From positions 1 to 18,567 of the IMG/VR virus record IMGVR_UViG_3300045988_161322: DNA of 18,567 bases; one strand, 5' to 3'. Below the pieces are notes generated by a model. That model was given only the letters and a program-made list of their open reading frames with translations, was not told the DNA's origin and made no database searches. The translations under genes and the position numbers were made by a program. This document shows, piece after piece, positions 1 to 18,567 of the stretch (position 1 is the stretch's first letter; the number at the start of each line of letters is the position of its first letter). This DNA comes from a virus.

Positions 1-223
1 AATCTAATTTGTTCTTCTCAGTTCCAAATACTTCCCCCAATAGTAATCAAAACTACGTCAAATAACATACACAAATCATGTAACATTTTCATTATATTTT
101 CACATAGTATTGATAACTACATGCATCAATATTTTGTCGAATATTTCTTATAATTATTTTCAATTATTTGTTTAAAAACCCTTGCATTTTCTGTTCAAAT
201 GTTATATAATTAAATCATGGAAA
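1..223. repeat. Left inverted terminal repeat (ITR), 223 bp; genome end and protein-primed replication origin
   Basis: Bases 1-223 are the exact reverse complement of 18345-18567, compared by eye in 10-nt blocks. The first mismatch is 224 versus 18344. The genome also encodes a protein-primed family-B polymerase and a terminal-protein candidate. Confidence 0.97.
182..210 (+). promoter_or_regulatory. Sigma-A-type early promoter inside the left ITR, reading inward
   Basis: TTGCAT (182-187), a 17-nt spacer, then TATAAT (205-210). An A/T-rich block at about 145-178 lies upstream. The predicted start is near 217. Confidence 0.6.
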
Positions 224-622: not shown

Positions 623-691
623 ATGGAAATATTATTTTTTATTTTTATTGTTATTATTTTTATTATGTTAGGAATATATGCATTATCATAA
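623..691 (+). CDS. 22-aa hydrophobic peptide (MEILFFIFIVIIFIMLGIYALS)
   Basis: An identical SD, AGAGGTGA (611-618), lies 4 nt upstream of ATG 623. The peptide forms a single predicted transmembrane helix. T-rich DNA readily yields such translations by chance. Confidence 0.4.
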   Translation: MEILFFIFIVIIFIMLGIYALS

Positions 692-698
692 TTCTTGT

Positions 699-727
699 TT
701 ACCAATTAATCCACTTATACGTATAAT
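699..727 (+). promoter_or_regulatory. Candidate sigma-A-type promoter
   Basis: TTACCA (699-704), a 17-nt spacer, then TATAAT (722-727). It faces a 270-bp stretch without a credible ORF. Confidence 0.35.
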
Positions 728-996: not shown

Positions 997-1368
997 ATGA
1001 ACAAAGTAATTATTAGTGGAAATTTAACAAAGGACATGGACGTAAAGGTATTAGCTAACGAAACAATAGTCGGTAACTTTACAGTAGCAAATCAAGTGGG
1101 TTATGGCGAAAAAGCTAAAACTAATTTTGTACCTGTTACAATGTTTGGTCAAAGAGTTGAATCAATGGAAAAATATTTAGTAACTGGTGCTAAAGTTTTA
1201 ATAGAGGGTGAAATTGATTATAAATCAATTCAAAATGATAAAGGAAATTGGAAGAATTACTTTTCAGTAATTGTTCACAACATTGAAATTATTAAATTCA
1301 AAGAAGATAATCCTTTTGAAGAAGATAATAAAAATAAGAGAAATTACAGAAAAGGAGGTAGAAAATAA
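997..1368 (+). CDS. ssb: Single-stranded DNA-binding protein, bacterial OB-fold type
   Basis: The N-terminus MNKVIISGNLTKDMDVKV...NFTVA...FVPVTMFGQRVESMEKYLVTGAKVLIEGEI matches the classic SSB OB-fold pattern (MN.V.L.G.L..DPE...). SD GTGAGGT lies upstream. Confidence 0.85.
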   Translation: MNKVIISGNLTKDMDVKVLANETIVGNFTVANQVGYGEKAKTNFVPVTMFGQRVESMEKYLVTGAKVLIEGEIDYKSIQNDKGNWKNYFSVIVHNIEIIKFKEDNPFEEDNKNKRNYRKGGRK

Positions 1369-1653: not shown

Positions 1654-1682
1654 AAGGTAGGCTTTATTGTCTACCTTTTTTC
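1654..1682 (+). terminator. Rho-independent terminator of the left early unit
   Basis: Stem AAGGTAG (1654-1660) pairs with CTACCTT (1671-1677), with a 10-nt loop and a T-run at 1676-1681. Confidence 0.8.
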
Positions 1683-1723
1683 ATTTTTTATCGTATATAT
1701 TAATTGTAGTTTATAATACGTTG

Positions 1724-1865
1724 AATAATAATGTTGCAATTACATACCAAGGTGAAGAGCCTGTAATTGCAAGGTCGAAAGTGGTATTTCCGTTATTAAC
1801 ATTTATAAATTGCATTTTTATTGAGTACCCAACGCACTACAAGGTGCATATTTGGGTATTCTATT
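1724..1865 (+). ncRNA. Candidate structured RNA or late-leader element. Function unknown; packaging-RNA analogue is one hypothesis
   Basis: This is a non-coding gap. The track ORF 1667-1867 starts on TTG inside the terminator and has no SD. There is a perfect 11-bp stem, 1734-1744 with 1762-1772. A 9-bp stem, 1823-1831 with 1853-1861, encloses a GCAC/GTGC helix (1834-1837 with 1844-1847). TATAAT lies at 1712-1717. The region is visibly more G+C-rich than other intergenic DNA here. Confidence 0.3.
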
Positions 1866-1897
1866 AAGAATTAATAAATTATAAGGAGGAAATATTA

Positions 1898-2170
1898 ATG
1901 GCATTTGAAAATTTGGAACAAGCTAATGATTACCAATTAAAAGCTGAAAAAGAAATCGCAGATTTAAAGCAACAATTGGAAAGTCAAAAATCAGTTTTAT
2001 CAGAAAAAGATGAAACAATTAAATCATATGATGAACAAGTTAAAAAATTAAAAATTAAAAATTATGAATTATTTGAACAAGTTTCAAGTAATCCCGAACA
2101 AAACAAGCCTAAATCTCAAGATACTCAACCTAAAATGAGTTATCAAGAGTTTTTAAATAAAGTATTATAA
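1898..2170 (+). CDS. Putative scaffolding protein (phi29 gp7 position)
   Basis: A 90-aa coiled-coil-like, charged protein immediately upstream of the capsid gene, as in phi29 (gp7, about 98 aa). SD AAGGAGG. Confidence 0.6.
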   Translation: MAFENLEQANDYQLKAEKEIADLKQQLESQKSVLSEKDETIKSYDEQVKKLKIKNYELFEQVSSNPEQNKPKSQDTQPKMSYQEFLNKVL

Positions 2171-2188: not shown

Positions 2189-3232
2189 ATGGCATTGGAC
2201 AATGTAACGTTTGTAAGTATGGTTAGTGATTTAGCAAGTCAAGAATATAAAGATAGAGTTCCTACTGCAACTCAAGACAATATAGGGAATATTGAAGAAA
2301 TTATTTATACTTATCCAAGTACAAAGAATGAATTTATTAGTGTGTTAACAAATCAAGTTGCAAAACAATTATTTTTTAGTAAGGCATACGAAAATCCTTA
2401 CAAATTATTTAATAGGGGTATGTTACCATACGGTAAATCAATTGAAAGCATTTTTGTTGATATTATCAAAGGTAAACAAAGGACACACGAAACAGATACA
2501 TCTAATTTAGCTAGCGATTTATTAGCAAGAGAAACTCCTAATGTAAAGGTCGAGTATTATTCAGAAAATTTCCGTCATCAATACAAAACAACTATTACTG
2601 ATGAGGAATTAAAAGGTGCATTTAGGGCAGAAAATGGTTTAAGCTCTATGACAGGTAGAATATTACAAGCTCCATTGACTTCTATCGAGTATGACATGCA
2701 AGAAATGGTATTACATGCATTACCAGAATTAAAAGGTGGAAAAGCTACTATTAATAAGGTAGCATATGGTACAATGACAGAAGAAGAAAAGGCAAAAGTA
2801 TTAGTTAAGACTATAAAATCACAAGTTATCAAAATGGGATTTTTAAATAACAAACATAATGGACAGGGTGTAATGACTTTCTCAAGACCTCAAGATTTAG
2901 TTGTTTTCTTAGACCCGGATATGATGGCAAATATTGATGTTGAATTATTAGCACAAGCATTCAATATAGATAAGGCAGAAGTTCCACTTCATGTATTACC
3001 AGTTCCACAATTCACTAAGAGAACAGGAGAGGGTGAAGAAGCAACATATGCAGAAGATACTGATTGTTTAGCAATTATTTGTGATAAAGATGCAATACAA
3101 ATATATGAAACATTAAACAGTTCAGAAACATTTAGAAACCCTCAAGGAATTTATACAAATGTATTCTTCAATAGATGGGGATTAATGTCAGCTTGTAATT
3201 TTGCAAATGTTTGTAGAATAGTAACTGAATAA
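2189..3232 (+). CDS. Major capsid protein (phi29 gp8 family)
   Basis: Matches to phi29 gp8 as I recall it: PYGKSIESIFVDIIKGK with PLGRTIEEIYTDITKEK; ETPNVKV with EMPNVKT; FRNPQGIYTN...CNFANV with VRNPRGLYWN...SRFANA. Confidence 0.93.
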   Translation: MALDNVTFVSMVSDLASQEYKDRVPTATQDNIGNIEEIIYTYPSTKNEFISVLTNQVAKQLFFSKAYENPYKLFNRGMLPYGKSIESIFVDIIKGKQRTHETDTSNLASDLLARETPNVKVEYYSENFRHQYKTTITDEELKGAFRAENGLSSMTGRILQAPLTSIEYDMQEMVLHALPELKGGKATINKVAYGTMTEEEKAKVLVKTIKSQVIKMGFLNNKHNGQGVMTFSRPQDLVVFLDPDMMANIDVELLAQAFNIDKAEVPLHVLPVPQFTKRTGEGEEATYAEDTDCLAIICDKDAIQIYETLNSSETFRNPQGIYTNVFFNRWGLMSACNFANVCRIVTE

Positions 3233-3235
3233 AAT

Positions 3236-3262
3236 AAGGAGGTATACAAGCCTCCTTTTTTG
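3236..3262 (+). terminator. Rho-independent terminator or attenuator after the capsid gene
   Basis: Stem AAGGAGG (3236-3242) pairs with CCTCCTT (3251-3257), with an 8-nt loop and T6 at 3256-3261. Confidence 0.75.
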
Positions 3263-3294
3263 TCGTATATGAAAAAGGAAAGGAAGTGAATTTC

Positions 3295-4848
3295 ATGGCA
3301 AGACAAAGTACAATTTATTTGTTTAACTGTTGGTTTTTAGATGTTGGACACAATCATACAGTTAATTTTAATAATGTAACAAATCAATTAAATTTCTTTA
3401 TGAATTATTTGCAATTTAAAATTGATAACTGCACATATTTAAGAAAAGAACGTACATTAAAAGTTCCAAAATATATTGACGAACTTGCATTATGTAATTA
3501 TTGTGCATTTCAAAATTCTGTTGATGGTAAAATGGAATACTTTTTTATTTTAAATAAAACTTATCTTTCTGAAAATGTAACGGAACTTACTTTAAAGTTA
3601 GATGTAATTCAAACATATTGGTTTGAAATGAATTTTACAAAAATAAAATCTCACATAGATAGGCAACATTTATGGAGATGGAATGCAGATGGAACAGTGG
3701 CAGATTATAATATGTTAGAAAATGAAGATTTTGAAATAGGTGAATATATTTTACAAAACAGAACTCCACTTTATGATTATGAAAACAAAGGTGGTTATAT
3801 TGTTACTAGTTCAGATAAACTTTCAATAAAATATAGTGGTGGAAGTAGTGATAGTTCAACAAATCAAGGTAATTTATATAAAGATAAATTAGTATCAGCT
3901 AATGGTTTTTGGTTTATTAAACAAGGCGAGGGGTTTAGCGCAACTCCATACAATTTAGGTGATGGAACTTACACTATTGGCTACGGTACTACGAGTAAAT
4001 ATGATTCTGAACATTATAATCAACTTGCTCCAGAATGTACAGAGGAACAAGCAAGTAATGTGTTGGCAGAAAGTTTAAAGAACAATTATTCATCATATGT
4101 GTATGATACCTTTGTCAAATATGGTTTTGATATGAATAAAATGAAGCAACAACATTTTGATGCGTTCGTTTCTTTTTATTATAATACTGGTAGTTTATCA
4201 AACAAGTCAATTTTTACTAAATACATTAATGGCGATAGTCCTGAAAGTATTGCAGAAGTATGGAAAGAAACGGTAATAATGCCGGGTACTCAATTCGAAG
4301 AGGGATTAAGGAATAGAAGAAAAGCAGAAGCTAATGTATTTTTAAATGGTGATTATAATTATAAGCCAATACCTAACCTAAATGGTGGAACAATTACAGA
4401 CAATGACGGAAAAGGTTACATTCCTGATATGTTTAATAAGTATGATACTCCAACAAGTGAAATAAGGCAAAATATTATAAATAGCGCAAAGAAACTGATT
4501 GGATTACCTTACGTATATGGTGGGAATTATCCTCCATTAGGTAATAGTAGTGGAACAGATTGTTCTGGCTTATGTCAATGGGCATATCATGATAATGGAA
4601 TAAATATATCAAGAACAACATATACACAAATTAAAGAGGGTAAAGAAATAACGTTAGAAGAATGTAAACCAGGTGATTTGGTCTTTACTAGGGGTAACTC
4701 CGACAATGGTCATGTTGTTATGTTTTATAGGCATAATGATGATGGTAGCATTCATGTTATTGAAGCAAAACAAACAGGTACAGATATAATGGAAAATGAC
4801 AGAACTCCAAATAGTGATTATCGTTATAGAAATTTATTAGGAGATTAG
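3295..4848 (+). CDS. Tail-knob N-terminal fragment fused to a GH24-like lysozyme and an NlpC/P60 endopeptidase (virion-associated peptidoglycan hydrolase)
   Basis: Numbering is from the track start at 3286. Residues about 1-180 resemble the phi29 gp9 N-terminus: LKLDVIQTYWFEMNF...IDRQHLWRWNADGT with FEIDVLQTWMFDIKF...VREHVKLWNDDGT. Residues about 203-352 carry IKQGEGFSATPYNLGDGTYTIGYGTT, a phage-lysozyme signature. Residues about 392-505 carry GLPYVYGG...GTDCSGL...GDLVF...GHVVMF, the NlpC/P60 Cys-His motifs. ATG 3295 sits 8 nt after AGGAAG and is preferred over GTG 3286. Confidence 0.9.
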   Translation: MARQSTIYLFNCWFLDVGHNHTVNFNNVTNQLNFFMNYLQFKIDNCTYLRKERTLKVPKYIDELALCNYCAFQNSVDGKMEYFFILNKTYLSENVTELTLKLDVIQTYWFEMNFTKIKSHIDRQHLWRWNADGTVADYNMLENEDFEIGEYILQNRTPLYDYENKGGYIVTSSDKLSIKYSGGSSDSSTNQGNLYKDKLVSANGFWFIKQGEGFSATPYNLGDGTYTIGYGTTSKYDSEHYNQLAPECTEEQASNVLAESLKNNYSSYVYDTFVKYGFDMNKMKQQHFDAFVSFYYNTGSLSNKSIFTKYINGDSPESIAEVWKETVIMPGTQFEEGLRNRRKAEANVFLNGDYNYKPIPNLNGGTITDNDGKGYIPDMFNKYDTPTSEIRQNIINSAKKLIGLPYVYGGNYPPLGNSSGTDCSGLCQWAYHDNGINISRTTYTQIKEGKEITLEECKPGDLVFTRGNSDNGHVVMFYRHNDDGSIHVIEAKQTGTDIMENDRTPNSDYRYRNLLGD

Positions 4849-4860
4849 GAGGGATTTATA

Positions 4861-6114
4861 ATGGCAACAACTTCAAAAAATGAGCCAGATAGCACAATAA
4901 TTAATAATGTTGCAGTTGGGTTATATTATTACTATGTTCCTAAAAATGGAGCAAGTGAAGCAACTTATCTTGGATTTGTAAATACTATTGAAAGTGTAAC
5001 ATATAATCCTTTCATTGATGAAGCTGATATATCAGACGTTCGTAAAGCAATATTTGATACTGCAAGGTATGGAAGCCCCGACGGTCAAATACCTTATGTA
5101 AAAAGAATTTGTTCGTTTGATAAAATTAATTATCAACTTGGTGGAACTCAAAAAATTTACCCTAAAAAATCTGACTATAGTTATGATTTTGAGCCTAGGG
5201 TTTTATGTTATCCTTTTAGATATTTTTTAATTACTGATTATTCTTCAAATCCAATGTTAATCAAGCCCGAAAGAATAGAGGATAATGGCACAAACGAATT
5301 CAAGGTAAAAGTAAAAACTACTGCAATAAGTTCAGAAAGTAAGTATAATATTTATGTTGAAAATTATAAATATGATGGCGATGGTAACTTAGAGGGAATG
5401 TGTAATAGTACAGCATTAATGTTACCTGTTACATCTTCTGCATATAGTCAATTTTTAGCTACTTCTGCTAGTTCATTTAATCAATCAGTTACTAATGCTT
5501 TATTAGAAAATGATTTAACATTAAAACATAATACTCAATCAAATAATTTGAATTTTGCACAAAGTACAACTAATAATGCATTAAGTGCAATAGGTAATTT
5601 ATTGAGCCTAAATTTTGGAGGATTAGCAGGTAACGCAAGTAATTTAGCTTTTGGTTACATGCAAAATCAATTAGCTAATAATCAAGCAAATGAAAATTCA
5701 CAATTAAATGAGCATAACATTATTAGTATGAAAAACGCAAAAGTTAACGATATGCTAACAACTCCGAATAGTATTAAGACTGCAGGAAATGACACATTAT
5801 TTAATTTAATTAATAGCAATCAAAGAGTTGATTTATTAGAATATAGATGTAATGTTCAACAAATGTCAAAGGCTCAAGAATATTTTAAACGATATGGTTA
5901 TAAAGTTAATGGTTATGATTTTATAAATTTAACATGTAGAAAACATTATAATTATGTAAAAACTAATGTTTGTAATATTGTAGGAGCAAGAATACCTCAT
6001 GAATATTTAGACGAAATAAAATCAATTTTTAATAATGGTATTACAGTTTGGCATATGGACAATGACGGAACAACAATGTTCAATTATGATAACAATGTGG
6101 AGGTGTATGTATAA
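4861..6114 (+). CDS. Tail-knob protein, central and C-terminal part (phi29 gp9 residues about 200-599)
   Basis: Matches to phi29 gp9 as I recall it: VGLYYYYVPKNG with PLCYYIHPFYKDG; CYPFRYFLITDY with MYPYCVTEITDF; YFKRYGYKVNG...YNYVKTNVC...EIKSIFNNGITVWHMDN with FFHKYGYKINR...FNYVQTKDC...EIRTIFDNGITLWHTDN. It has its own SD GGAGGG and ATG, 12 nt after the preceding TAG. Confidence 0.9.
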   Translation: MATTSKNEPDSTIINNVAVGLYYYYVPKNGASEATYLGFVNTIESVTYNPFIDEADISDVRKAIFDTARYGSPDGQIPYVKRICSFDKINYQLGGTQKIYPKKSDYSYDFEPRVLCYPFRYFLITDYSSNPMLIKPERIEDNGTNEFKVKVKTTAISSESKYNIYVENYKYDGDGNLEGMCNSTALMLPVTSSAYSQFLATSASSFNQSVTNALLENDLTLKHNTQSNNLNFAQSTTNNALSAIGNLLSLNFGGLAGNASNLAFGYMQNQLANNQANENSQLNEHNIISMKNAKVNDMLTTPNSIKTAGNDTLFNLINSNQRVDLLEYRCNVQQMSKAQEYFKRYGYKVNGYDFINLTCRKHYNYVKTNVCNIVGARIPHEYLDEIKSIFNNGITVWHMDNDGTTMFNYDNNVEVYV

Positions 6115-6992
6115 TGGGAATGACACATAAACAAAAACAGGGATTGATGCAAGAAAGTAGAAATCAACATTTTAATTTATTGTATAATAAATACAAGTTA
6201 TTAGCTTTAAATATGTTCACATGGGAAAACCTACCCGAAACAATTAAACCAAGATACATCGAAAAATCTCTTTTTCACTTTGGAAAAGCTATATTCGTTA
6301 ATGATGAAAATATGGGATTAATTTGTGTTCCTTGTGAATTTGCTGAAGAAATGAACGTAAATTTTGAGCATACAAAAGTAATTACAAGTGGTTATAATTA
6401 TATTAAAACTATACCCTATTTAAATAAAGATTGGAAGAATAATTGTCAACTTATTCTTAATAATGATTTAGGTTTCGGAACAGAGGATTATGTCATAGAT
6501 TATGCAACAAAGATGATGGAGGTTGAAAGATGTATAAGAGCTAATATTAATCATCAAAAATTCCCTTGGTTTATAGAAACAACTCCCAACAATAAACAAA
6601 CTATGCAAAAATTATTTGAAGAAGTAGATAATTTAGAGCCAGTGATTTTTGGTAATAAGGATTTAAATATTGAAAACTCAAATGCAATTTTAACTACTAC
6701 TCCATATGTCGCAGATAAGCTTAATGCATACAAATATGAACTTGAAAGAGAAATACTAACATTTTTTGGATTGAACAATTCCTTTGAGAAAAAGGAAAGA
6801 TTATTAGTTGACGAGGTTAATTCTAATAATGATTATATAAATAGAAATGTAGATATTATGTTTGCTAATAGACAAATTGCATGTAAAGAACTTAATAAAA
6901 AATTTGGGCTTAATGTTAAAGTAACAAAAAATAATAATTTTGAAAACAGTTATGACCAAGACGGAGAAAAGGAGGGAGAAATAGATGAGTAA
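6114..6992 (+). CDS. Head-tail connector, upper collar (portal), phi29 gp10 family
   Basis: Matches to phi29 gp10 as I recall it: [23 protein letters not shown] with [52 protein letters not shown] with [37 protein letters not shown] with YGLNVKV. Confidence 0.95.
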   Translation: [292 protein letters not shown]

Positions 6993-7611
6993 ATACACAC
7001 TAGAATTAAATCAAATAGTCAATGACTTAGATTTTAATTTATTTGATTTTGATTATAATTTATATGACAATGAATTAAAGTCAGCTTTTCAGAAAAAATT
7101 TATTGACCATTTCTATTTTTATGAAATTGGATTAACTCCTATAGCTAGATTTAAAAAGGCATTGCAAATTAAATTAAATGATATTTATCCATATTTTAAA
7201 CAACTTTATCAAACTGAATTAAGATGTAATGACATTGATTTTATGCTAAATAAAGATTTAAAAGAGCAATATACAAGAGAATTAACAGGAAATAGTTCAG
7301 TTAATCAAAGTTCAACAAGTACATCAAATGACACTAGCTTAAATATTAATAATGATACTCCACAAAATAAAGTTGATGACATTGACCAATATATGACTAG
7401 TGCAAGTAAGAATACGGACAACTCAACAATGAGCAGTAACGGGACAAATAGTGCAGAAAATAATTCAACAGAAACATATAGTTTAATTTCCCAAGGTAAT
7501 ATAGGGGTGACTTCATCTGCTGAATTATTAGAAAAATGGAGAAACGTATTAATAAATATTGACCAAATGATTTTTGATGAATGTAACGATTTGTTCATGC
7601 TAATATATTAG
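6985..7611 (+). CDS. Putative lower collar (tail tube) protein (phi29 gp11 position)
   Basis: It directly follows the connector and overlaps it by 8 nt. The N-terminal pattern FDFDY...FIDHFYFYEIG is typical of lower-collar proteins as I recall them. It has a central Ser/Asn/Thr-rich segment. Confidence 0.7.
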   Translation: MSKYTLELNQIVNDLDFNLFDFDYNLYDNELKSAFQKKFIDHFYFYEIGLTPIARFKKALQIKLNDIYPYFKQLYQTELRCNDIDFMLNKDLKEQYTRELTGNSSVNQSSTSTSNDTSLNINNDTPQNKVDDIDQYMTSASKNTDNSTMSSNGTNSAENNSTETYSLISQGNIGVTSSAELLEKWRNVLINIDQMIFDECNDLFMLIY

Positions 7612-7637
7612 GACTTGTTTACTCAAGTCCTTTTTTG
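7610..7637 (+). terminator. Rho-independent terminator or attenuator after the collar genes
   Basis: Stem AGGACTTG (7610-7617) pairs with CAAGTCCT (7624-7631), with a 6-nt loop and T6 at 7631-7636. Confidence 0.8.
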
Positions 7638-7667
7638 TCGTTAGTAATAAATAGGAGGTGCATGTGC

Positions 7668-10079: not shown

Positions 10080-10325
10080 ATGAGCGAAGTATCAACATTA
10101 ATTACAAATCTAGGTTTTCCAATTGTTTGCGTTCTAGGTTGTGCATATTTTATTTGGTATATGGTTAAGCAAGAACGTGAAGAAAATGCAAAAAGGGAAG
10201 AAAGGTATTTGACAACTATTGATAAATTCACAGATGTACTTGAAAAAGTAAACGAAAATTTGGCAACAAATAACAAAAGATTAGAATATATAGAAAAGAA
10301 ATTAAGCATAGGAAGTGATGAGTAA
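10080..10325 (+). CDS. Holin, BhlA/UviB family
   Basis: One N-terminal transmembrane helix (LITNLGFPIVCVLGCAYFIWYMV) is followed by a charged coiled-coil tail (KQEREENAKREERY...). This is the BhlA/UviB architecture. It sits immediately upstream of the endolysin. SD AGGAGG. Confidence 0.8.
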   Translation: MSEVSTLITNLGFPIVCVLGCAYFIWYMVKQEREENAKREERYLTTIDKFTDVLEKVNENLATNNKRLEYIEKKLSIGSDE

Positions 10326-10985
10326 TTGTATAACCAAATTAATATTAGTAGTGGTCATAGCATAAATTGTCAAGGTGCAAGTGATATAATAAACGAAGTT
10401 ACTGAAGCAAGAAAAATAGTTGATAGAATTTACGACATGTGTAAAGCTATTGGTATAGAAGTGTACAAGTATCATGATACATCAAGTTCAAGTTCACAAA
10501 ACTTAGCAAATATTGCAAACTGGCATAATCAATTTAAAGATGGTATAGATATATCAATTCATTTTAATGCTTATCACCATACATCAAACAGTATGGGTAC
10601 AGAAGTTTGTTATTATTCCCAATCACAATTAGCTAATCAAGTGTCATCTGCAATTAGTAAAGCAAGTGGACTAAAAGATAGAGGGGGAAAAGAAAGAAAA
10701 GGGCTTTATGTTTTAAAACACACAAATAAACCAATGCTATTAATTGAAGTTTGTTTCTGTGATAGTTCTTTTGATGTACAAAAATATCGTGAAAACTTTG
10801 ATGGCATATGTTCTGCAATAATACAAGCTTTAACTGGTAAAACTTTTCAAGTAAATAATACAAATAATAGTTCAAATAATGATAAGATTTATCGTGTACA
10901 AGTTGGAGCATATAAAGTTAAATCAAATGCAGAAGAAATGCAACAAAAATTAAAGAAATTAGGTATTGATAGTATAATTGTATAA
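10326..10985 (+). CDS. Endolysin: N-acetylmuramoyl-L-alanine amidase (Amidase_3, CD27L-like) with a C-terminal SPOR-like repeat
   Basis: SSGHSINCQGAS..INE and ISIHFNA....GTEVCYYS....LKDRG.KERKGLYVLKHTNKPMLLIEVCFCD parallel the CD27L/PlyPSA-type amidase as I recall it. After an Asn/Ser linker, YRVQVGAYKVKSNAEEMQQKLKKLG matches the SPOR signature. The only usable start is TTG 10326, which abuts the holin stop. GGAAGTG lies 8 nt upstream. Confidence 0.88.
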   Translation: MYNQINISSGHSINCQGASDIINEVTEARKIVDRIYDMCKAIGIEVYKYHDTSSSSSQNLANIANWHNQFKDGIDISIHFNAYHHTSNSMGTEVCYYSQSQLANQVSSAISKASGLKDRGGKERKGLYVLKHTNKPMLLIEVCFCDSSFDVQKYRENFDGICSAIIQALTGKTFQVNNTNNSSNNDKIYRVQVGAYKVKSNAEEMQQKLKKLGIDSIIV

Positions 10986-10993
10986 TATAAACA

Positions 10994-11024
10994 GTCCTTG
11001 CAATCACTTGTAAGGGCTTTAATT
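10994..11024 (+). terminator. Weak stem-loop, possible attenuator, after the endolysin
   Basis: GTCCTTGCAA (10994-11003) pairs with TTGTAAGGGC (11008-11017), including two G-U pairs, with a 4-nt loop. The tail TTTAATT is poor. Confidence 0.35.
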
Positions 11025-11045
11025 AAATGAAAGGAAGTGTTTATT

Positions 11046-12047
11046 TTGGCATGGTATAATTATGATAGAATTAATAGTTATAATGCTACTTTGAATTTCA
11101 TATTGACTAATAGAGGGTTTGGGAAAACATTTGGAGCAAAATGTAATGTAATCAAAAAGTTTTTAAAAAAGGGTGAACAATTTGTATATGTAAGGAGATA
11201 TAAAACTGAACTTAATGATATTCATAAATTTTTTGATAGTCCTGATTTAAGGAAAAAGTTTAAGACACACACATTCGAAGTAAAAGGTAAAACATTTTAT
11301 ATAGATGGAAAAATCGCAGGGTATGCGATTGCTCTTTCAACATCACAAAAATTAAAATCAGTAGATTATCCTTTTGTAACAACTATCATTTTTGACGAAT
11401 TTATAGTCGATAAAGGTTGTATAAGGTATTTATCCAATGAAGTTGATGTATTTTTAGATTTATATGAAACAATAGCAAGAAAAAGAAATAATGTTAAAGC
11501 ATATTTACTAGCTAATAATGTTTCAGTAGTTAATCCTTATTTTACTTACTTTGATGTAACTCCTAAAAAGACAGAAAGATTTACTATAGCTCGTGATGGT
11601 GAATTGATTATCGAAATGTGCACTGATACAGTATTTATTAATGAAAAACTAGAAACAAAGTTTGGTAAACTTATTAAAGGGACAAAATATGCTGACTATT
11701 CAATATTTAATAATTCGCTTAGAGATAGTGAAGTGTTTATTGAGAAAAGACCAAAAAGAAATACTTCGCCTGTTATGTCAATAACATATAATGGTGAAGT
11801 TAGTATGATATGGCTTGATTACAAAACTGGTATATTTTATTGTGATGACAAATATATGAAAACATGTAATGAATATGTACTAAGTTGTGAAGACCATAAT
11901 CCGAATACATTACTAAATGCAAGTGGAATTAATCTTAGCATGTTAAAACAATTAATATCATATTTCCAAGTTGGAAGAGTAAGATTTTCTGACCAAAACA
12001 ATAAACATTTAATGTATGATATTTTCAGAAGTTTAGGAGTAAAATAA
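11046..12047 (+). CDS. DNA encapsidation ATPase (phi29 gp16 family)
   Basis: Matches to phi29 gp16 as I recall it: YDRINSYNATLNFILTNRGFGKTF with YDRILNFVIGARGIGKSY (Walker A); GEQFVYVRRYKTEL with GEQFIYVRRYKPEL; TTIIFDEF with STIVFDEF; NNVSVVNPYF with SNAVSVVNPYF. There is no in-frame ATG. TTG 11046 lies 8 nt after AAGGAAG and is preferred over GTG 11037, which overlaps the SD. Confidence 0.93.
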   Translation: MAWYNYDRINSYNATLNFILTNRGFGKTFGAKCNVIKKFLKKGEQFVYVRRYKTELNDIHKFFDSPDLRKKFKTHTFEVKGKTFYIDGKIAGYAIALSTSQKLKSVDYPFVTTIIFDEFIVDKGCIRYLSNEVDVFLDLYETIARKRNNVKAYLLANNVSVVNPYFTYFDVTPKKTERFTIARDGELIIEMCTDTVFINEKLETKFGKLIKGTKYADYSIFNNSLRDSEVFIEKRPKRNTSPVMSITYNGEVSMIWLDYKTGIFYCDDKYMKTCNEYVLSCEDHNPNTLLNASGINLSMLKQLISYFQVGRVRFSDQNNKHLMYDIFRSLGVK

Positions 12048-12049
12048 AA

Positions 12050-12066
12050 GGAGGGTTTAACCCTCC
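12050..12066. terminator. Bidirectional terminator between the convergent late and right-early units
   Basis: GGAGGG (12050-12055) pairs with CCCTCC (12061-12066), with a 5-nt loop. It is flanked by A-rich sequence on the left and T-rich sequence on the right, and sits in the 24-bp gap between two convergent stop codons. Confidence 0.75.
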
Positions 12067-12071
12067 AATTG

Positions 12072-12635
12072 TTAAATTATTTCTCTTATTTCTTTCTCAT
12101 GTTCTCTTAATCTTTTTCTAATCCTTGATAAAATTGTTTTTGTACCATTATATTTTGTATTATATTTTTTACATATTTCTTCTATAGTATAACCTTGACA
12201 ATACATTTTAAAATATTCTTTATGCCTTTCATTTTTGATAAATTCGCAAACCTTATCAATTGTTTCGTTTATATCTTCGTATTCATCTTCAGATTGAATA
12301 ACATTGTGTAAACTCAAATCCTTATTACTTTCATTTTTAACCACTTCTTTATCTAAAAACACTCTATTGTCATAAACTTTTCTTTTTTCTCTTCTTTCAA
12401 TTTTTAAAACATCATAAACTCCATTTTTTACTACTTTTGCAATGAATGTATTTAACCCTGCAATATCTTCATTATATTTATTTATAGCAAAAGCAACTTT
12501 TATTTCACATATTTGTAACACATCTTCAAATTCTACCCTATCATGGTAATTTACTAATATAGTATTATAAAATCTGTATGTCATACCTTTTATATATCTA
12601 TCTCCATATTGATTTATATAATCTTCATATTTCAT
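12072..12635 (-). CDS. Sigma-70-family (ECF or group-5-like) sigma factor, candidate late-gene regulator
   Basis: 187 aa. A region-2-like segment, EDVLQICEIKVAFAINKY...LNTFIAKVVKNGVYDVLKIERREKRK, and a region-4 HTH-like segment, KEYFKMYCQGYTIEEICKKYN...GTKTILSRIRKRLRE, are separated by an acidic linker. SD GGGGGTAAGGA. Confidence 0.7.
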   Translation of the reverse strand: MKYEDYINQYGDRYIKGMTYRFYNTILVNYHDRVEFEDVLQICEIKVAFAINKYNEDIAGLNTFIAKVVKNGVYDVLKIERREKRKVYDNRVFLDKEVVKNESNKDLSLHNVIQSEDEYEDINETIDKVCEFIKNERHKEYFKMYCQGYTIEEICKKYNTKYNGTKTILSRIRKRLREHEKEIREII

Positions 12636-12650
12636 AAAATTCCTTACCCC

Positions 12651-14780
12651 CTAAAATAAATAATAACTATTTGAAATTTTATAAGGTTGTTCTTGTATAA
12701 GTGTACCACCTTTTATTATCTTTGATTTTTTAGATTTAATTAAACCTACTATTTTCTTTGTACATTCTTTATCATAATAGTAATATATATCATTTTCTTT
12801 TGTGTATAATTTCATCTTTTTTAATTCCTTTGATGCGTGAGGACAATTATCGAATACATTAATATCATTAACTTGCTTCATTATATTATCTGTTAATCCA
12901 CAACATTTAATTTCCCATTTATGAGTTTCTGCATTCTTTTCTGCATAACGTTTGCTGCCAATATATTTAAAATCTTCAAAACATAATTCATTATCCCAGT
13001 AACCATATATCTTTGCTCCAATGTTTACCCCTTTAACTTCTTCAAGTGTTCCGTATAAATGTAAACTGTCAGTATCACAATATAAAAATCTTTCATAATT
13101 TGCATTAATTGCTTGGACTAAATATTGCTTAGCATATGATGTTATAAAAGTCGCCATAGGTAAATAAATGTTATCTGAAACATACTCATCATGTAAATGA
13201 TTAATTGTAAATATCCCGTCTTTGTTTTCAAATTCTGTAATTTCGTTACTGCCACTCATGCCGAATTTACCATATAACCCGTTTTGCCTTAATTTTGCAA
13301 TTGCTCTATTTGCACCTGTAGAGTTCTTTTTTACTTCACTCCAAAAATCAATGTAGTTTTTGAATAAATCATGACTACCACTAAATGCCATATGCCCACC
13401 AAGTTCATAAGAATAAACATTGTAACATTCAAAAAGTAAATCAAGTAACGGGTTGCATAATCTAAAAGTTAATGTTACTTTTTCTCCATCTTTTACATTA
13501 TTTTTTAATATTTCACGACCATTAAAATTTGGGTTATCCTTAACTTGTAAGAATGCCATCTTATTTTCTTTTACTTCAAAATCGTATATAGTAATTTCTT
13601 GAATATATAATGGAAAACATTTTTTATAACTTTCATTCATATCACAATATGGAATATCTTTATAATTTGCTTGACCATAAGGTAATAGTCTGTCGTACAT
13701 AATATATGGATACAAAGAATTAACATCTAAAACTATACCGTTATGATTTTTGCATTTTTTAAATTTTTCTACATTTTCAAAACATACTGTACTTAAACCA
13801 CCATAATACGAATGCCTTTGCCATGCATCAGTAAAATAACTTTGCTTTGGAAACAAGCATTCAAACATTATTTGTTTTTTCAAAGCAGGGCTATTAGTTT
13901 GAAAAAATTTCGAACGCATTAATCCATTATCTACATAGTCAAATAAATCTTGATTTTCAAACATATTTTGTTTTAAAGTATAATCCTCTAGAATTGTGTC
14001 TTTATAATCCTCTAATGATTGACCACTATTTGTTAACTTAGTGTACAATACATGTTTCCCATTTATATCAAGCCCGTCAATTTTAAGCATTTTTACTAGA
14101 TAACTTAAACCGAATACATCATTGTAAATATAACTTAATTCTTCTATTGTTAAATCATCATCAAGACTTCTTTCCTTTTCATAATCTAATCCATCTTTTG
14201 GTAGATGCAAATTAAGAAAGTCACTACAACATTTTTGTAAAGAAAATGGAGCAATTTTGAAAGTATCATAAAAATTTATTGTTACGTCATCACCTTGTAA
14301 AGTTAACTTATAAAATAGTCCATCTTTCATTATTAAATTATATTCAAATGCTTTTAATTTTGTTTTATTCTTAGTAGTGAATTTTAATTTTTCTTTTTTC
14401 TTATTGTAAAAATCGTAACATTCTTTTTCGTAATAATCATCAAATCTTTGACTTACATTATCTTGTTCGGTAAACCATAATATAAAAGGCTTAATATCGT
14501 ATAATGCATTATGAGCAAATAAATTAATTGTTTTCTTTTTAATAGATAATAAATCATTCATAAACTTATCAACAGATTTATAATGATAACAAATATCTGT
14601 ATTATTGTCACATGACATTAAAGCGATAGAATAAGTTAACATTTCATTCTTTTCTTTTAAATAACATGCTTCAATATCAAACGCAAAATTTTGAACGTCG
14701 CCATAATTTGGAATAGTATCATAAAAATAATGTTTTTTTAACTCATTAGTAATTTTTTCTAACCTTTCATTTAATTTCAT
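12651..14780 (-). CDS. Protein-primed family-B DNA polymerase (phi29 gp2 type)
   Basis: Exo I FAFDIEA, Exo II HNALYDIKPF, Exo III YIYNDV, motif A LDVNSLYP, motif B KLRQNGLYGKFG, motif C LYCDTDS, and KxY GSKRYAEK. SD GGGAGGA. Confidence 0.96.
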   Translation of the reverse strand: MKLNERLEKITNELKKHYFYDTIPNYGDVQNFAFDIEACYLKEKNEMLTYSIALMSCDNNTDICYHYKSVDKFMNDLLSIKKKTINLFAHNALYDIKPFILWFTEQDNVSQRFDDYYEKECYDFYNKKKEKLKFTTKNKTKLKAFEYNLIMKDGLFYKLTLQGDDVTINFYDTFKIAPFSLQKCCSDFLNLHLPKDGLDYEKERSLDDDLTIEELSYIYNDVFGLSYLVKMLKIDGLDINGKHVLYTKLTNSGQSLEDYKDTILEDYTLKQNMFENQDLFDYVDNGLMRSKFFQTNSPALKKQIMFECLFPKQSYFTDAWQRHSYYGGLSTVCFENVEKFKKCKNHNGIVLDVNSLYPYIMYDRLLPYGQANYKDIPYCDMNESYKKCFPLYIQEITIYDFEVKENKMAFLQVKDNPNFNGREILKNNVKDGEKVTLTFRLCNPLLDLLFECYNVYSYELGGHMAFSGSHDLFKNYIDFWSEVKKNSTGANRAIAKLRQNGLYGKFGMSGSNEITEFENKDGIFTINHLHDEYVSDNIYLPMATFITSYAKQYLVQAINANYERFLYCDTDSLHLYGTLEEVKGVNIGAKIYGYWDNELCFEDFKYIGSKRYAEKNAETHKWEIKCCGLTDNIMKQVNDINVFDNCPHASKELKKMKLYTKENDIYYYYDKECTKKIVGLIKSKKSKIIKGGTLIQEQPYKISNSYYLF

Positions 14781-14793
14781 TTATTAATCCTCC

Positions 14794-15588
14794 CTATTTA
14801 AAATTATCCAAGTTCCTATACTCTTGTATTGTCCTATCTATTCTTGCATAAGAATTTTCGGAAGCTTTATCTATTTCATCCTCTCCAACATCTAGATATT
14901 TATCCCTTAAATTATTAAGCTCGCCTTTTATAAATAATTCTTTTTGTAGTGGTGAAAGAGTGTGCCATTGTTTCCATATAGCTTGTCTTTGATAATTCTT
15001 CATATTTTGAACAAAATCTAAACTCATAAAATCAGCAAACCATTGATTTTGCATTGTATCATCATTTATTTTGTCATAAACTGCTTGAAGTGTTATCTTT
15101 TTATAATCATTCTTTAATTTGTTTAACATTGCTAATCTTTTATCATCATCAGTTATTATTAAATTTCCAATTTTCTTTAATGGAGTTCCGTCTACCTTAA
15201 AGCTTTTATTTCTCCTACTTGGAAAAAATATATCTTTACCAGATAGATAATCAATTTCTTGTTGTGATAAACCAATAGCTTTTAATGCATTTAATGTCAT
15301 ATCAACTTCCTTATTATATCTTTTTACATATCGATTAAGTCGTGTTTCAATTGGTAGTGATTTTTTAGGCTTTGAATTATCTTTTTTAATTTGTGAATTT
15401 AAACCACGTTCAATTTTATTAATTTGTGATTTTAATTGTCTATCAGTAAGTTGTCCATTTTTTAAATAAGTTGGAATTTTAAAACCTAACATTGTTAACT
15501 TATTAGTTAAGTATTTTACTTTTTGCTTAGTTGACTTCTTTTCCCAATTTACTCTTTTTAATCCACTTAGTTGTCGCTTTGCATTCAT
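14794..15588 (-). CDS. Putative terminal protein (phi29 gp3 position)
   Basis: It lies immediately upstream of the polymerase in the same operon. It is 264 aa (phi29 TP is 266 aa), very basic and Lys-rich in the N-terminal two-thirds, with an acidic C-terminal part. No direct sequence motif recognised. Confidence 0.6.
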   Translation of the reverse strand: MNAKRQLSGLKRVNWEKKSTKQKVKYLTNKLTMLGFKIPTYLKNGQLTDRQLKSQINKIERGLNSQIKKDNSKPKKSLPIETRLNRYVKRYNKEVDMTLNALKAIGLSQQEIDYLSGKDIFFPSRRNKSFKVDGTPLKKIGNLIITDDDKRLAMLNKLKNDYKKITLQAVYDKINDDTMQNQWFADFMSLDFVQNMKNYQRQAIWKQWHTLSPLQKELFIKGELNNLRDKYLDVGEDEIDKASENSYARIDRTIQEYRNLDNFK

Positions 15589-15630
15589 GGTATACCCCCT
15601 TATTATTCATATATTTATAATATATGTATT

Positions 15631-15656: not shown

Positions 15657-15929
15657 TTAGTTATTTATTAACTCGTTATATCTTGTAACCTTAGATATAT
15701 AAATACTATCAAAGGCTTCGGGTATTATTTCAAGTTTTTCATTTAATTTTTCTAAACAAATATAAACGTCAACCATTTCCTCAAGTACCATGCTATCAAT
15801 TTCTTCTTTACTTGCTCTTAATGTTACATCACCACTAGCCCAACGATTAAGTTTTGATAAAGCTTGTATAAGTTCAGAACATTCCTCTATAGTAATTGAA
15901 TTAACATCTTGTAAACTTTCTCTTATCAT
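15657..15929 (-). CDS. MazG-like all-alpha nucleoside-triphosphate pyrophosphohydrolase (small form)
   Basis: 90 aa with IEECSELIQA (ExxE) and LEEMVDVYICLEKL (ExxD). This is the spacing and helical context typical of the MazG / dimeric dUTPase superfamily, compared with B. subtilis YpjD from memory. Confidence 0.55.
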   Translation of the reverse strand: MIRESLQDVNSITIEECSELIQALSKLNRWASGDVTLRASKEEIDSMVLEEMVDVYICLEKLNEKLEIIPEAFDSIYISKVTRYNELINN

Positions 15930-17236: not shown

Positions 17237-17542
17237 TTATTTTTCACCCCTCTTTTCAAATTCTATTAATCTGTCTATATATTCTTTTGCTTTTTCTAAA
17301 TCTTCAATACCATTTTTGGCTTTATATCTTGTAACATATTTAATAACATTACCTTGCATAAATGTTAAGTTATTTCTTAGACAAAACTCAATAACATCAA
17401 TACCAGTTCCATAATATGATGGCTTTATTTTAGATTCTTTACGTTCAAATTCACTATAATTCCAGCATTTATCATTTGTACAATCTTCACCATTAAAATA
17501 AATACACAAACCACAACCTTTAACATTTACATCCATTGACAT
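17237..17542 (-). CDS. DUF3310-like protein with an N-terminal 4-Cys extension
   Basis: C-terminal YYGTGIDVIEFC...LTFMQGNVIKYVTRYKAKNGIEDLEKAKEYIDRL matches the DUF3310 pattern (NxxKYxxR...K.G.EDL.KA..Y) as I recall it. The N-terminus is GCGLCIYFNGEDCTNDKC. Confidence 0.7.
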   Translation of the reverse strand: MSMDVNVKGCGLCIYFNGEDCTNDKCWNYSEFERKESKIKPSYYGTGIDVIEFCLRNNLTFMQGNVIKYVTRYKAKNGIEDLEKAKEYIDRLIEFEKRGEK

Positions 17543-18249: not shown

Positions 18250-18344
18250 TTTAAATCACCTCTTATTTGTAATATACAATCATTGGAATACATACCCTTA
18301 GCCACTACAAGGTTATGATATTTAGTAGTGCTTATTTATTTCCC

Positions 18345-18567
18345 TTTCCATGATTTAATTATATAACATTTGAACAGAAAATGCAAGGGTTTTTAAACAA
18401 ATAATTGAAAATAATTATAAGAAATATTCGACAAAATATTGATGCATGTAGTTATCAATACTATGTGAAAATATAATGAAAATGTTACATGATTTGTGTA
18501 TGTTATTTGACGTAGTTTTGATTACTATTGGGGGAAGTATTTGGAACTGAGAAGAACAAATTAGATT
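18345..18567. repeat. Right inverted terminal repeat (ITR), 223 bp
   Basis: Exact reverse complement of 1-223. Confidence 0.97.
18358..18386 (-). promoter_or_regulatory. Sigma-A-type early promoter inside the right ITR, reading inward
   Basis: Mirror image of 182-210: -35 TTGCAT at 18386-18381 and -10 TATAAT at 18363-18358 on the - strand. The predicted start is near 18351. Confidence 0.6.

Follow-up and report, generated by a model that had tools for sequence, protein, structure and literature searches.

A sigma factor of the phage's own was found in an 18,567-nucleotide (nt) stretch of viral DNA, IMG/VR record IMGVR_UViG_3300045988_161322, which is called the window and was analysed over its full length. 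The open reading frame (ORF) at 12072-12635 on the minus strand encodes a sigma-70-family protein with two domains, sigma-2 and sigma-4, in an architecture like that of extracytoplasmic function (ECF) sigma factors. It belongs to a phi29-like phage, in which it is the final gene on its strand, 15 nt past the gene for a protein-primed family-B DNA polymerase (PolB). An earlier note, drawn from the sequence alone, had described a 187-amino acid (aa) ORF downstream of the polymerase, with region 2-like and region 4 helix-turn-helix (HTH)-like segments and in the size class of ECF and group-5 sigma factors, and each of these statements agrees with the present results. Phage-encoded sigma factors are well known in larger phages; the new and unexpected element is their occurrence in the phi29 lineage, the smallest tailed phages. 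The explanation considered rather likely is that this phage-specific sigma factor switches on late or middle phage transcription. The gene, its product and its immediate surroundings are listed below.

12072-12635, minus strand: sigma-70-family gene, ATG start and TAA stop, 187 aa plus stop
About aa 1-89 (12369-12635), minus strand: sigma-2 domain
aa 90-115 (12291-12368), minus strand: acidic linker of low model confidence, predicted local distance difference test score (pLDDT) 53-66
aa 116-187 (12075-12290), minus strand: sigma-4 HTH domain
12636-12650, minus strand: spacer between PolB and sigma genes, 15 nt, with a ribosome-binding site (GGGGGTAAGGA) only
12651-14780, minus strand: PolB (PF03175 6.5e-33; phrog_1907 1.8e-91)
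14794-15588, minus strand: candidate terminal protein of 264 aa, named from position and size
12050-12066, no strand assigned: convergent terminator hairpin (GGAGGGTTTAACCCTCC) between sigma and gp16 genes, 7 pairs (5 GC) and a T-run

Profile searches and structure comparison agree on the family. NCBIfam model TIGR02937 (sigma70-ECF superfamily) matches residues 21-178 with 57.0 bits against a cut-off of 42.9, Pfam Sigma70_ECF matches residues 64-180 with 22.2 bits against a cut-off of 21.1, and PHROG 1740, 'RNA polymerase sigma factor', matches at 3e-12. Alignment with relatives brings out the features of region 2 (2.1-2.4: EDvlQ..., ...TFI..., KR) and the HTH of region 4.2, while regions 1.1 and 3 are absent from the 187 residues and a short flexible linker joins sigma-2 to sigma-4. 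An AlphaFold (AF2) model computed from a 34-sequence alignment has a pLDDT of 84.7 and consists of two helical domains, residues 1-89 (pLDDT >90) and 116-186 (about 90); an earlier run with 18 near-identical sequences had given a pLDDT of 50. The top 50 Foldseek matches in the PDB are sigma factors exclusively, among them a Bacillus subtilis SigH model (9a4r, the top match), Mycobacterium tuberculosis SigH, RpoE/NepR, AlgU and Escherichia coli sigma-E, and the structural neighbours in the viral library are mostly phage sigma factors. TM-scores are low, an effect of the arbitrary orientation of the two domains. Searched singly with phmmer, the protein matched nothing among PDB sequences; the family profile alone succeeded, with sigma-H (3mzy) at 3.6e-25 (92 bits) and SigW over its full length at 5.7e-16 (62.1 bits).

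In overall design the protein resembles ECF (group 4) sigma factors such as B. subtilis SigW (PDB 5wuq), which have about 180-190 aa, sigma-2 and sigma-4 only and a flexible linker, and this likeness extends to the full-length profile match and to TIGR02937 as the best superfamily model. Unlike ECF members, however, it brings no specific ECF subgroup model near its cut-off and has no adjacent anti-sigma gene. Sigma-H gave both the best PDB profile match and the top Foldseek match, and spore_sigH models are among the weak NCBIfam matches of several clade members. Nevertheless, the protein scores 21 bits where the SigH equivalog cut-off is 295, and no candidate site was seen that matches the sigma-H-type promoter, AGGA / GAAT.

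Kinship with the TcdR/UviA sigma factors (group 5) had been put forward in the earlier note, together with a regulatory module shared with a holin of the UviB/BhlA type. The description of the holin was borne out, since BLASTP against UviB of plasmid pIP404 gave 31% identity with E=1e-8; Pfam Holin_BhlA reached 19 bits, under its cut-off of 22.6. The phage also shares with TcdR, BotR, TetR and UviA a similar sigma size, an AT-rich Firmicute context and candidate -35-like hexamers (TTTACT, TATACA, TCTACC, TTTACC) that resemble the group-5 TTTACA (PMC4031146). Group-5 factors carry a Ser-Arg-Gln marker in region 4.2 and recognise -35 TTTACA and -10 GTTATA (PMC4031146). In an alignment to pIP404 UviA these marker positions read Lys-Tyr-Asn in the window, and Ser-Arg-Gln is found in no clade member of the family alignment. 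The family profile gives UviA 14.1 bits as against 62.1 for SigW and 92 for sigma-H, pairwise BLASTP with pIP404 UviA is insignificant (E=0.85), and the 93.6% hhalign probability to UviA amounts to generic sigma homology. No candidate promoter motif lies directly upstream of the holin gene, and the sigma and holin genes stand 1.7 kb apart on opposite strands, with nothing like the uviAB gene pairing. Kinship with UviA/TcdR was rejected on the profile scores, BLASTP and the missing Ser-Arg-Gln, and is largely refuted at the sequence level; a group-5 sigma sharing a module with the holin, as in pIP404 uviAB, is now very improbable.

The position of the gene points to its transcription. Read from the right end, the minus strand carries small genes, the 264-aa protein, PolB and the sigma ORF. 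The 15-nt spacer leaves no room for a promoter, and we infer from this that the sigma gene is co-transcribed with PolB and the replication genes. Position, gap and terminator agree with the earlier description of the sigma gene as the last of the replication operon. The GC-rich hairpin is the meeting point of the two genome arms and a terminator common to the sigma and gp16 genes. No gene follows the sigma gene on its strand, hence no anti-sigma gene is co-transcribed there. The candidate terminal protein had no family match in Pfam or PHROG, and a syntenic homologue lies upstream of PolB in the related locus L015 (22% identity, E=7e-16).

A median ratio of nonsynonymous to synonymous substitution rates (dN/dS) of 0.10 (10 orthologues, 44 pairs) indicates that the sigma gene is under strong purifying selection. 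Fifty-three full-length close homologues have 80-90% identity, many of them on contigs of about 18-20 kb, and IMG/VR provided 12 loci with sigma homologues. An exhaustive profile search of 1.84 billion representative proteins returned only 10 below 1e-10 and 129 below 1e-3, so few that the family is isolated in sequence space. The closest cellular relatives are chromosomal ECF sigma factors with about 28% identity; P0188, which has a small downstream gene, and P0200 had been considered as further phage contexts and were set aside as chromosomal ECF sigma factors. Beyond the close relatives, the PolB-sigma order was found again in at least five diverged metagenomic lineages, with sigma identity of 27-32%. 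The loci concerned are as follows.

L015 and L021 (P0057): diverged sigma homologues; PolB 57% identical to that of the window
L025 (P0060), L026-L028 (P0061), L022 and L023 (P0058): diverged sigma homologues
L025, 3060-3608 and 3620-4159, and L022, 583-1140 and 1150-1695: tandem sigma genes after PolB
L044 (also L042-L049): 670-aa ORF at the PolB position, 89-2101, and sigma-like gene, 2285-2974

In L025 and L026-L028 the sigma gene follows a PF03175 PolB, and in L015, L021 and L022/L023 its upstream neighbour is PolB or an ORF in the position of PolB. It converges on the gp16 ATPase gene in L021, L025 and L026-L028. A search of IMG/VR yielded no loci related to P0058 or P0060. In L025 and L022 the tandem second gene is itself over the TIGR02937 cut-off (54.8 and 45.9 bits), an arrangement that points to a sigma cascade of two steps within a very small genome. 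The lineage of L042-L049, whose capsid protein is 60-63% identical to that of the window, has a 229-aa sigma-like protein that hhalign assigns to the family profile at 96.9%, with TIGR02937 at 29.8 bits, under the cut-off. In the L044 lineage this gene and the 670-aa ORF lie on the late-gene strand directly upstream of the late operon, and at about 2985-3200 of L044 they are followed by a terminator overlapping TTAACC-N17-TACAAT and then by a structured RNA like the one described below. The replication module of the L044 lineage is inverted relative to the window. Judged from these gene orders, PolB-sigma is a conserved module and not a single occurrence.

The phage itself is phi29-like, as the earlier note had it, with a protein-primed PolB, terminal inverted repeats, a gp16-type ATPase, a gp10 connector, a phi29-type major capsid protein and a gp9 tail knob. 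The window is a complete linear genome with a GC content of 26.9% and terminal inverted repeats of 236 nt (1-236 and 18332-18567, 98% identity). The hallmark families detected by Pfam are Phi29_MCP, Phage_connector, phi29_gp9_C, Podovirus_Gp16 and PolB, and the assignment is based on PF03175, PF05894, PF05352, PF25622 and PF20934. Among deposited phages, PolB is closest to those of the Clostridium perfringens Guelinviridae (about 30% identity) and the gp16 ATPase to those of Salasmaviridae (about 42% identity; Enterococcus phage Athos and B. subtilis phages). The phage is either a deep lineage or a Guelinviridae/Salasmaviridae mosaic. Megablast of 11000-15600 found no nucleotide-level match to deposited phages. 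Among 185,579 species genomes there was a single match, L030 (JBJEEA010000010.1), a 3.6-kb contig of a metagenome-assembled genome labelled 'Bacilli bacterium', with 87% sigma identity; as a hint of a host among the Bacilli it is weak at best.

No sigma homologue was found by tblastn in 50,697 deposited phage genomes with the window sigma and two other clade sigmas as queries, nor in plasmids with the window sigma. A family hidden Markov model (HMM), which readily detects unrelated sigma factors and recovered all positive controls, found no sigma-family ORF in the fetched sequences of CPD7, Hungatella phage CH17P1, Aurora, CI644P1 and Athos, the CH17P1 record being a partial genome and Aurora covered over 2952-25905 of 25,905 bp. 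In C. perfringens phage CPD7 the gene that follows PolB had been considered as a cryptic sigma factor, and this was ruled out. The word sigma is absent from a 2024 review of phi29-like phages (PMC11476376), and full-text literature searches combining phi29-like or Picovirinae family names with 'sigma factor' retrieved no report of such a phage sigma. Within the collections covered, a sigma factor thus appears to be unreported so far in the phi29 group. Family scans of the ORFs tested in the window detected no transcription regulator besides sigma, p4-like proteins included, p4 being small and fast-evolving; the same scans detected no p6 homologue.

The candidate targets of the sigma factor lie on the opposite strand. 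The promoters, the conserved RNA and the genes of the plus-strand arm are arranged as follows, together with the inward promoter at the right end.

182-210, plus strand: strong sigma-A-type promoter TTGCAT-N17-TATAAT in the left terminal repeat, reading inward, recognised by sequence reading
698-727, plus strand: sigma-A-type promoter TTTACC-N18-TATAAT
997-1368, plus strand: single-stranded DNA-binding protein (SSB) gene
1654-1699, plus strand: terminator hairpin (1654-1677) and candidate late promoter 1, GTCTAC (1669-1674), N17, CGTA (1692-1695)
1706-1871, plus strand: conserved structured non-coding RNA, about 165 nt, between the first late site and the scaffold-like gene
1898-2170, plus strand: scaffold-like gene
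2189-3232, plus strand: phi29-type major capsid protein
3236-3271, plus strand: terminator hairpin (3236-3257) and candidate late promoter 2, after the capsid gene, GTATAC (3242-3247), N16, CGTA (3264-3267)
About 3295-4848, plus strand: tail protein with lysozyme and NlpC/P60 domains
4861-6114, plus strand: gp9 tail knob
6114-6992, plus strand: connector
6985-7611, plus strand: lower collar, with an appendage-like protein gene next
7610-7646, plus strand: terminator hairpin (7610-7631) and candidate late promoter 3, after the lower-collar gene, GTTTAC (7617-7622), N16, CGTT (7639-7642)
10080-10325, plus strand: UviB/BhlA-like holin
10326-10985, plus strand: amidase endolysin
11037-12047, plus strand: gp16 packaging ATPase, last on its strand
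18358-18386, minus strand: sigma-A-type promoter TTGCAT-N17-TATAAT in the right terminal repeat, reading inward toward the early/replication/sigma unit

The two terminal-repeat promoters, near the sigma-A consensus, are candidate early promoters, and the one at 698-727 belongs with them. A scan for the sigma-A consensus gave 152 matches where 146.7 were expected, which is the chance level in a genome of 27% GC and makes the scan uninformative on the statement of the earlier note that the late operon lacks an obvious sigma-A promoter. Upstream of the promoters in the repeats, at 115-144 and 18424-18453, there is a near-match to the late motif, AACTAC-N17-CGAA.

At three intergenic sites of the plus strand, (G/A)TCGT(A/T) comes after the hairpin and T-run of an intrinsic terminator. 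The earlier note had pointed to a recurring non-canonical bipartite motif, and this stood for the three sites, all upstream of late genes. It did not stand for a further match at 697, where CG is missing in seven of 10 relatives and TATAAT is kept, as in a host sigma-A promoter. Across 10-12 relatives the hairpins vary, while TAC-N16-CGT and the box TTTTGTCGTAT(A) are invariant. At candidate late promoter 1, which includes TATATA at 1694-1699, TCGTATATA is invariant in 11 of 11 relatives as spacer and hairpin vary, and transcription is predicted to start near 1706, exactly at the 5' boundary of the conserved RNA's closing helix. At candidate late promoter 2, TAC-N16-CGT and TTTTGTCGTATATGAAAA are kept in all relatives despite a varying hairpin, and for candidate late promoter 3, L025 and L026 have similar boxes, TTTTTGTAGTATAAT and TTTTTGTTGTATATT, in the syntenic position. 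SigW-type ECF promoters of B. subtilis have CGTA as their -10 core, and CGTW is present and conserved at the three sites. The -35-like element of the window's family is GTNTAC (TAC or CAC), not the AAC that is the ECF hallmark; in the L044 lineage it reads GTTAAC. That the three GTNTAC-N16/17-CGTW sites (1669, 3242, 7617) are promoters of the phage sigma is offered tentatively, with somewhat less than an even chance of being right.

The conserved RNA downstream of the first of these sites is probably a prohead RNA (pRNA). Conservation across the 200-nt gap that separates the first late site from the scaffold-like gene exceeds that of the genes on either side, and the gap is also recognisable in L042-L049. 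For 1706-1871, RNAalifold predicted 33 pairs, 10 of them with compensatory changes; with a loop-loop helix included, there are 39 pairs and 97.4% of cells are paired, compared with 34-49% in slid controls. Changes on both sides occur in 12 pairs. The covariation score reaches 0.357, as against 0.148 for shuffled controls (0 of 500). Only two lineages enter this comparison, so that each covarying pair represents about one evolutionary event. The loop-loop helix would form between an internal loop, AUACCA (1744-1749), and a hairpin loop, UGGUAU (1782-1787), whose positions read UGCAA and UUGCA in the L042-L049 lineage. In phi29 pRNA the R and L loops pair between molecules in this same pattern. 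When the window and 1690-1900 were scanned against Rfam, the only matches were at chance level, and the Bacillus pRNA family was not among them.

Two observations concern neighbouring non-coding DNA. A second highly conserved non-coding stretch, at 728-996 on the plus strand between the 698-727 promoter and the SSB gene, contains a covarying stem (AGUGG..CCACA as against AGCGG..CCGCA across relatives) as well as a hairpin at 846-862; the stretch could represent an RNA of unknown kind or a long leader. In L046, a unit of roughly 16 nt (ATTTACGAGTATACTY) is repeated about six times in tandem at about 3070-3190, between the pRNA-like RNA and the scaffold gene; the relative L048 has about one copy.

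From these elements the following mechanism is proposed. Host sigma-A RNA polymerase would probably start the early unit at the TTGCAT-N17-TATAAT promoter of the terminal repeat, and the sigma gene would be transcribed as the last cistron of this terminal-protein/DNA-polymerase unit. The phage sigma would then bind host core RNA polymerase and direct it to phage promoters on the opposite strand, which would express the pRNA-like RNA and the scaffold, capsid, tail, lysis and packaging genes. The targets would be the three sites in the 3' half of terminator hairpins; with the motif embedded in this way, each site would terminate transcription arriving from upstream and start it anew. Core binding, timing and promoter choice are what we infer; that the sigma drives the late operon is plausible from its position, its conservation and the lack of any p4-like gene among the ORFs scanned. 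The sigma would thus be an early-to-late switch within convergent early and late units, as is p4, the activator of late promoter A3 in phi29 (PMC11476376), although p4 is a non-sigma activator/repressor that works through the sigma-A holoenzyme. The same logic, in which an early phage sigma redirects the host core to later promoters, is known for SPO1 gp28 and gp33/34, phiEco32 gp36 and the sigma of Bacillus phage Fah (PMC13401047, PMC12276001, PMC4113786), and phage sigma factors are among the structural neighbours of the window protein. Unlike those phages, the window phage has an 18.6-kb, protein-primed, phi29-like genome, and its sigma has no detectable sequence homologue in deposited phages. 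SPO1, phiEco32 and Fah have genomes of about 37-150 kb and rely on different systems for replication and packaging. The more comprehensive proposal, given nearly even chances, is that a whole clade of phi29-like phages, uncultured so far, protein-primed and minimal in size (about 13-20 kb), swapped p4-type activation for a sigma factor of its own, in some members a two-sigma cascade, with the sigma gene welded to the polymerase gene and late promoters set in terminator hairpins, one of them driving the packaging pRNA. To our knowledge, these would be the smallest phage genomes that encode a sigma factor.

Several observations weigh against the proposed switch, and many of them favour ordinary host promoters at the late sites. 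The reading of the window comes from sequence and model analysis. Models for the separate regions, named as a check in the earlier note, stay under their cut-offs (Sigma70_r2, residues 26-82, 19.4 bits against 24; Sigma70_r4_2, residues 139-176, 17.8 bits against 25.7). No late-type motif lies upstream of the sigma gene, an autoregulatory promoter is not evident, and no anti-sigma gene is evident in the window. GTNTAC-N16/17-CGTW has four matches, all intergenic on the plus strand, against 0.08 expected, but the pattern was defined post hoc from the three sites described, which inflates the statistics. Three of the four matches keep TCGT in every relative; the fourth reads as a sigma-A promoter. 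The -35-like hexamer is not conserved between lineages, and downstream of the capsid gene the L044 lineage has no promoter box. Weak sigma-A -10 hexamers (TATATA, TATATG) are an alternative reading of the -10-like boxes, the homologous boxes in L025 and L026 are TATAAT and TATATT, and the homologous site of the L044 lineage, TTAACC-N17-TACAAT, is a fair sigma-A promoter. Moreover, the box is alike across lineages whose sigma factors are only about 28% identical, as for a conserved host factor. The late sites could accordingly be weak sigma-A promoters, possibly aided by replication or template copy number, with the phage sigma serving narrower or different targets such as the pRNA-like RNA, a middle class or other promoters. 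This is judged unlikely: the -35 regions match TTGACA at only three or four of six positions, an invariant CG, in a genome of 27% GC, is foreign to sigma-A promoters, and the late-type sites depart from the sigma-A consensus, unlike the terminal-repeat and 698 promoters, so that the deviation looks deliberate.

Action on the host is a distinctly unlikely explanation, whether the sigma reprograms host transcription or serves as a decoy that occupies the core and shuts off sigma-A transcription. Phage sigma factors with host effects are documented, SigF/G homologues that alter sporulation among them (PMC9429907), and the tie between the sigma and phage promoters rests here on sequence, not experiment. 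NCBIfam, however, gives no SigB/F/G-family model for the window protein, whose closest cellular relatives are the generic ECF factors at about 28% identity. The strict conservation of the PolB-sigma module in an 18.6-kb genome and across diverged lineages speaks for a function central to the phage cycle, and in the L044 lineage the sigma-like gene adjoins the late promoter. Its constant adjacency to PolB would also be explained by a sigma-fold DNA-binding protein for replication or genome organisation (p6-like, or binding the origin or terminal repeats) rather than an RNA polymerase subunit; this would account for the tight linkage with the terminal-protein and PolB genes, and the window scans detected no p6 homologue. 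DNA binding alone would need only the HTH domain, whereas both sigma-2 and sigma-4 are kept with typical features of regions 2.1-2.4, and such a role is highly improbable.

Further observations concern other genes of the window. The tail protein at 3295-4848 (plus strand) combines a Caudoviral tail N-terminal domain, a phage-lysozyme domain and an NlpC/P60 (CHAP-like) domain, and looks like a predicted virion-associated peptidoglycan hydrolase of dual activity. The left early region has a mini-ORF at 624-692 (plus strand) for a strongly hydrophobic product of 22 aa, with a good ribosome-binding site. In the right early region, 15657-15929 (minus strand) encodes a MazG-like NTP pyrophosphohydrolase fragment (phrog_2245), and 17237-17542 (minus strand) a 100-aa protein that matches 'nucleotide kinase' PHROGs and whose homologue in L031 is DUF3310.

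The phage phi29 is the textbook small phage, timing its genes by the DNA-bending activators p4 and p6 acting on the host sigma-A holoenzyme. The window phage has a sigma factor of its own, and none was found in the isolated phi29-like phages checked; it therefore probably turns on its late genes differently from phi29. The two would offer a natural comparison, two solutions to one switch on a homologous genome scaffold. The relatives with tandem sigma genes hint at a cascade in a genome of <20 kb, and the pRNA-like RNA, if a true prohead RNA, would extend prohead RNAs beyond the phages of Bacillus. In low-GC Firmicutes, the sigma and its short candidate promoters could be put to use as a compact orthogonal module for expression. 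A phi29-sized relative with its own sigma suggests that a dedicated subunit for polymerase specificity is within the means of even the most compact tailed phages.

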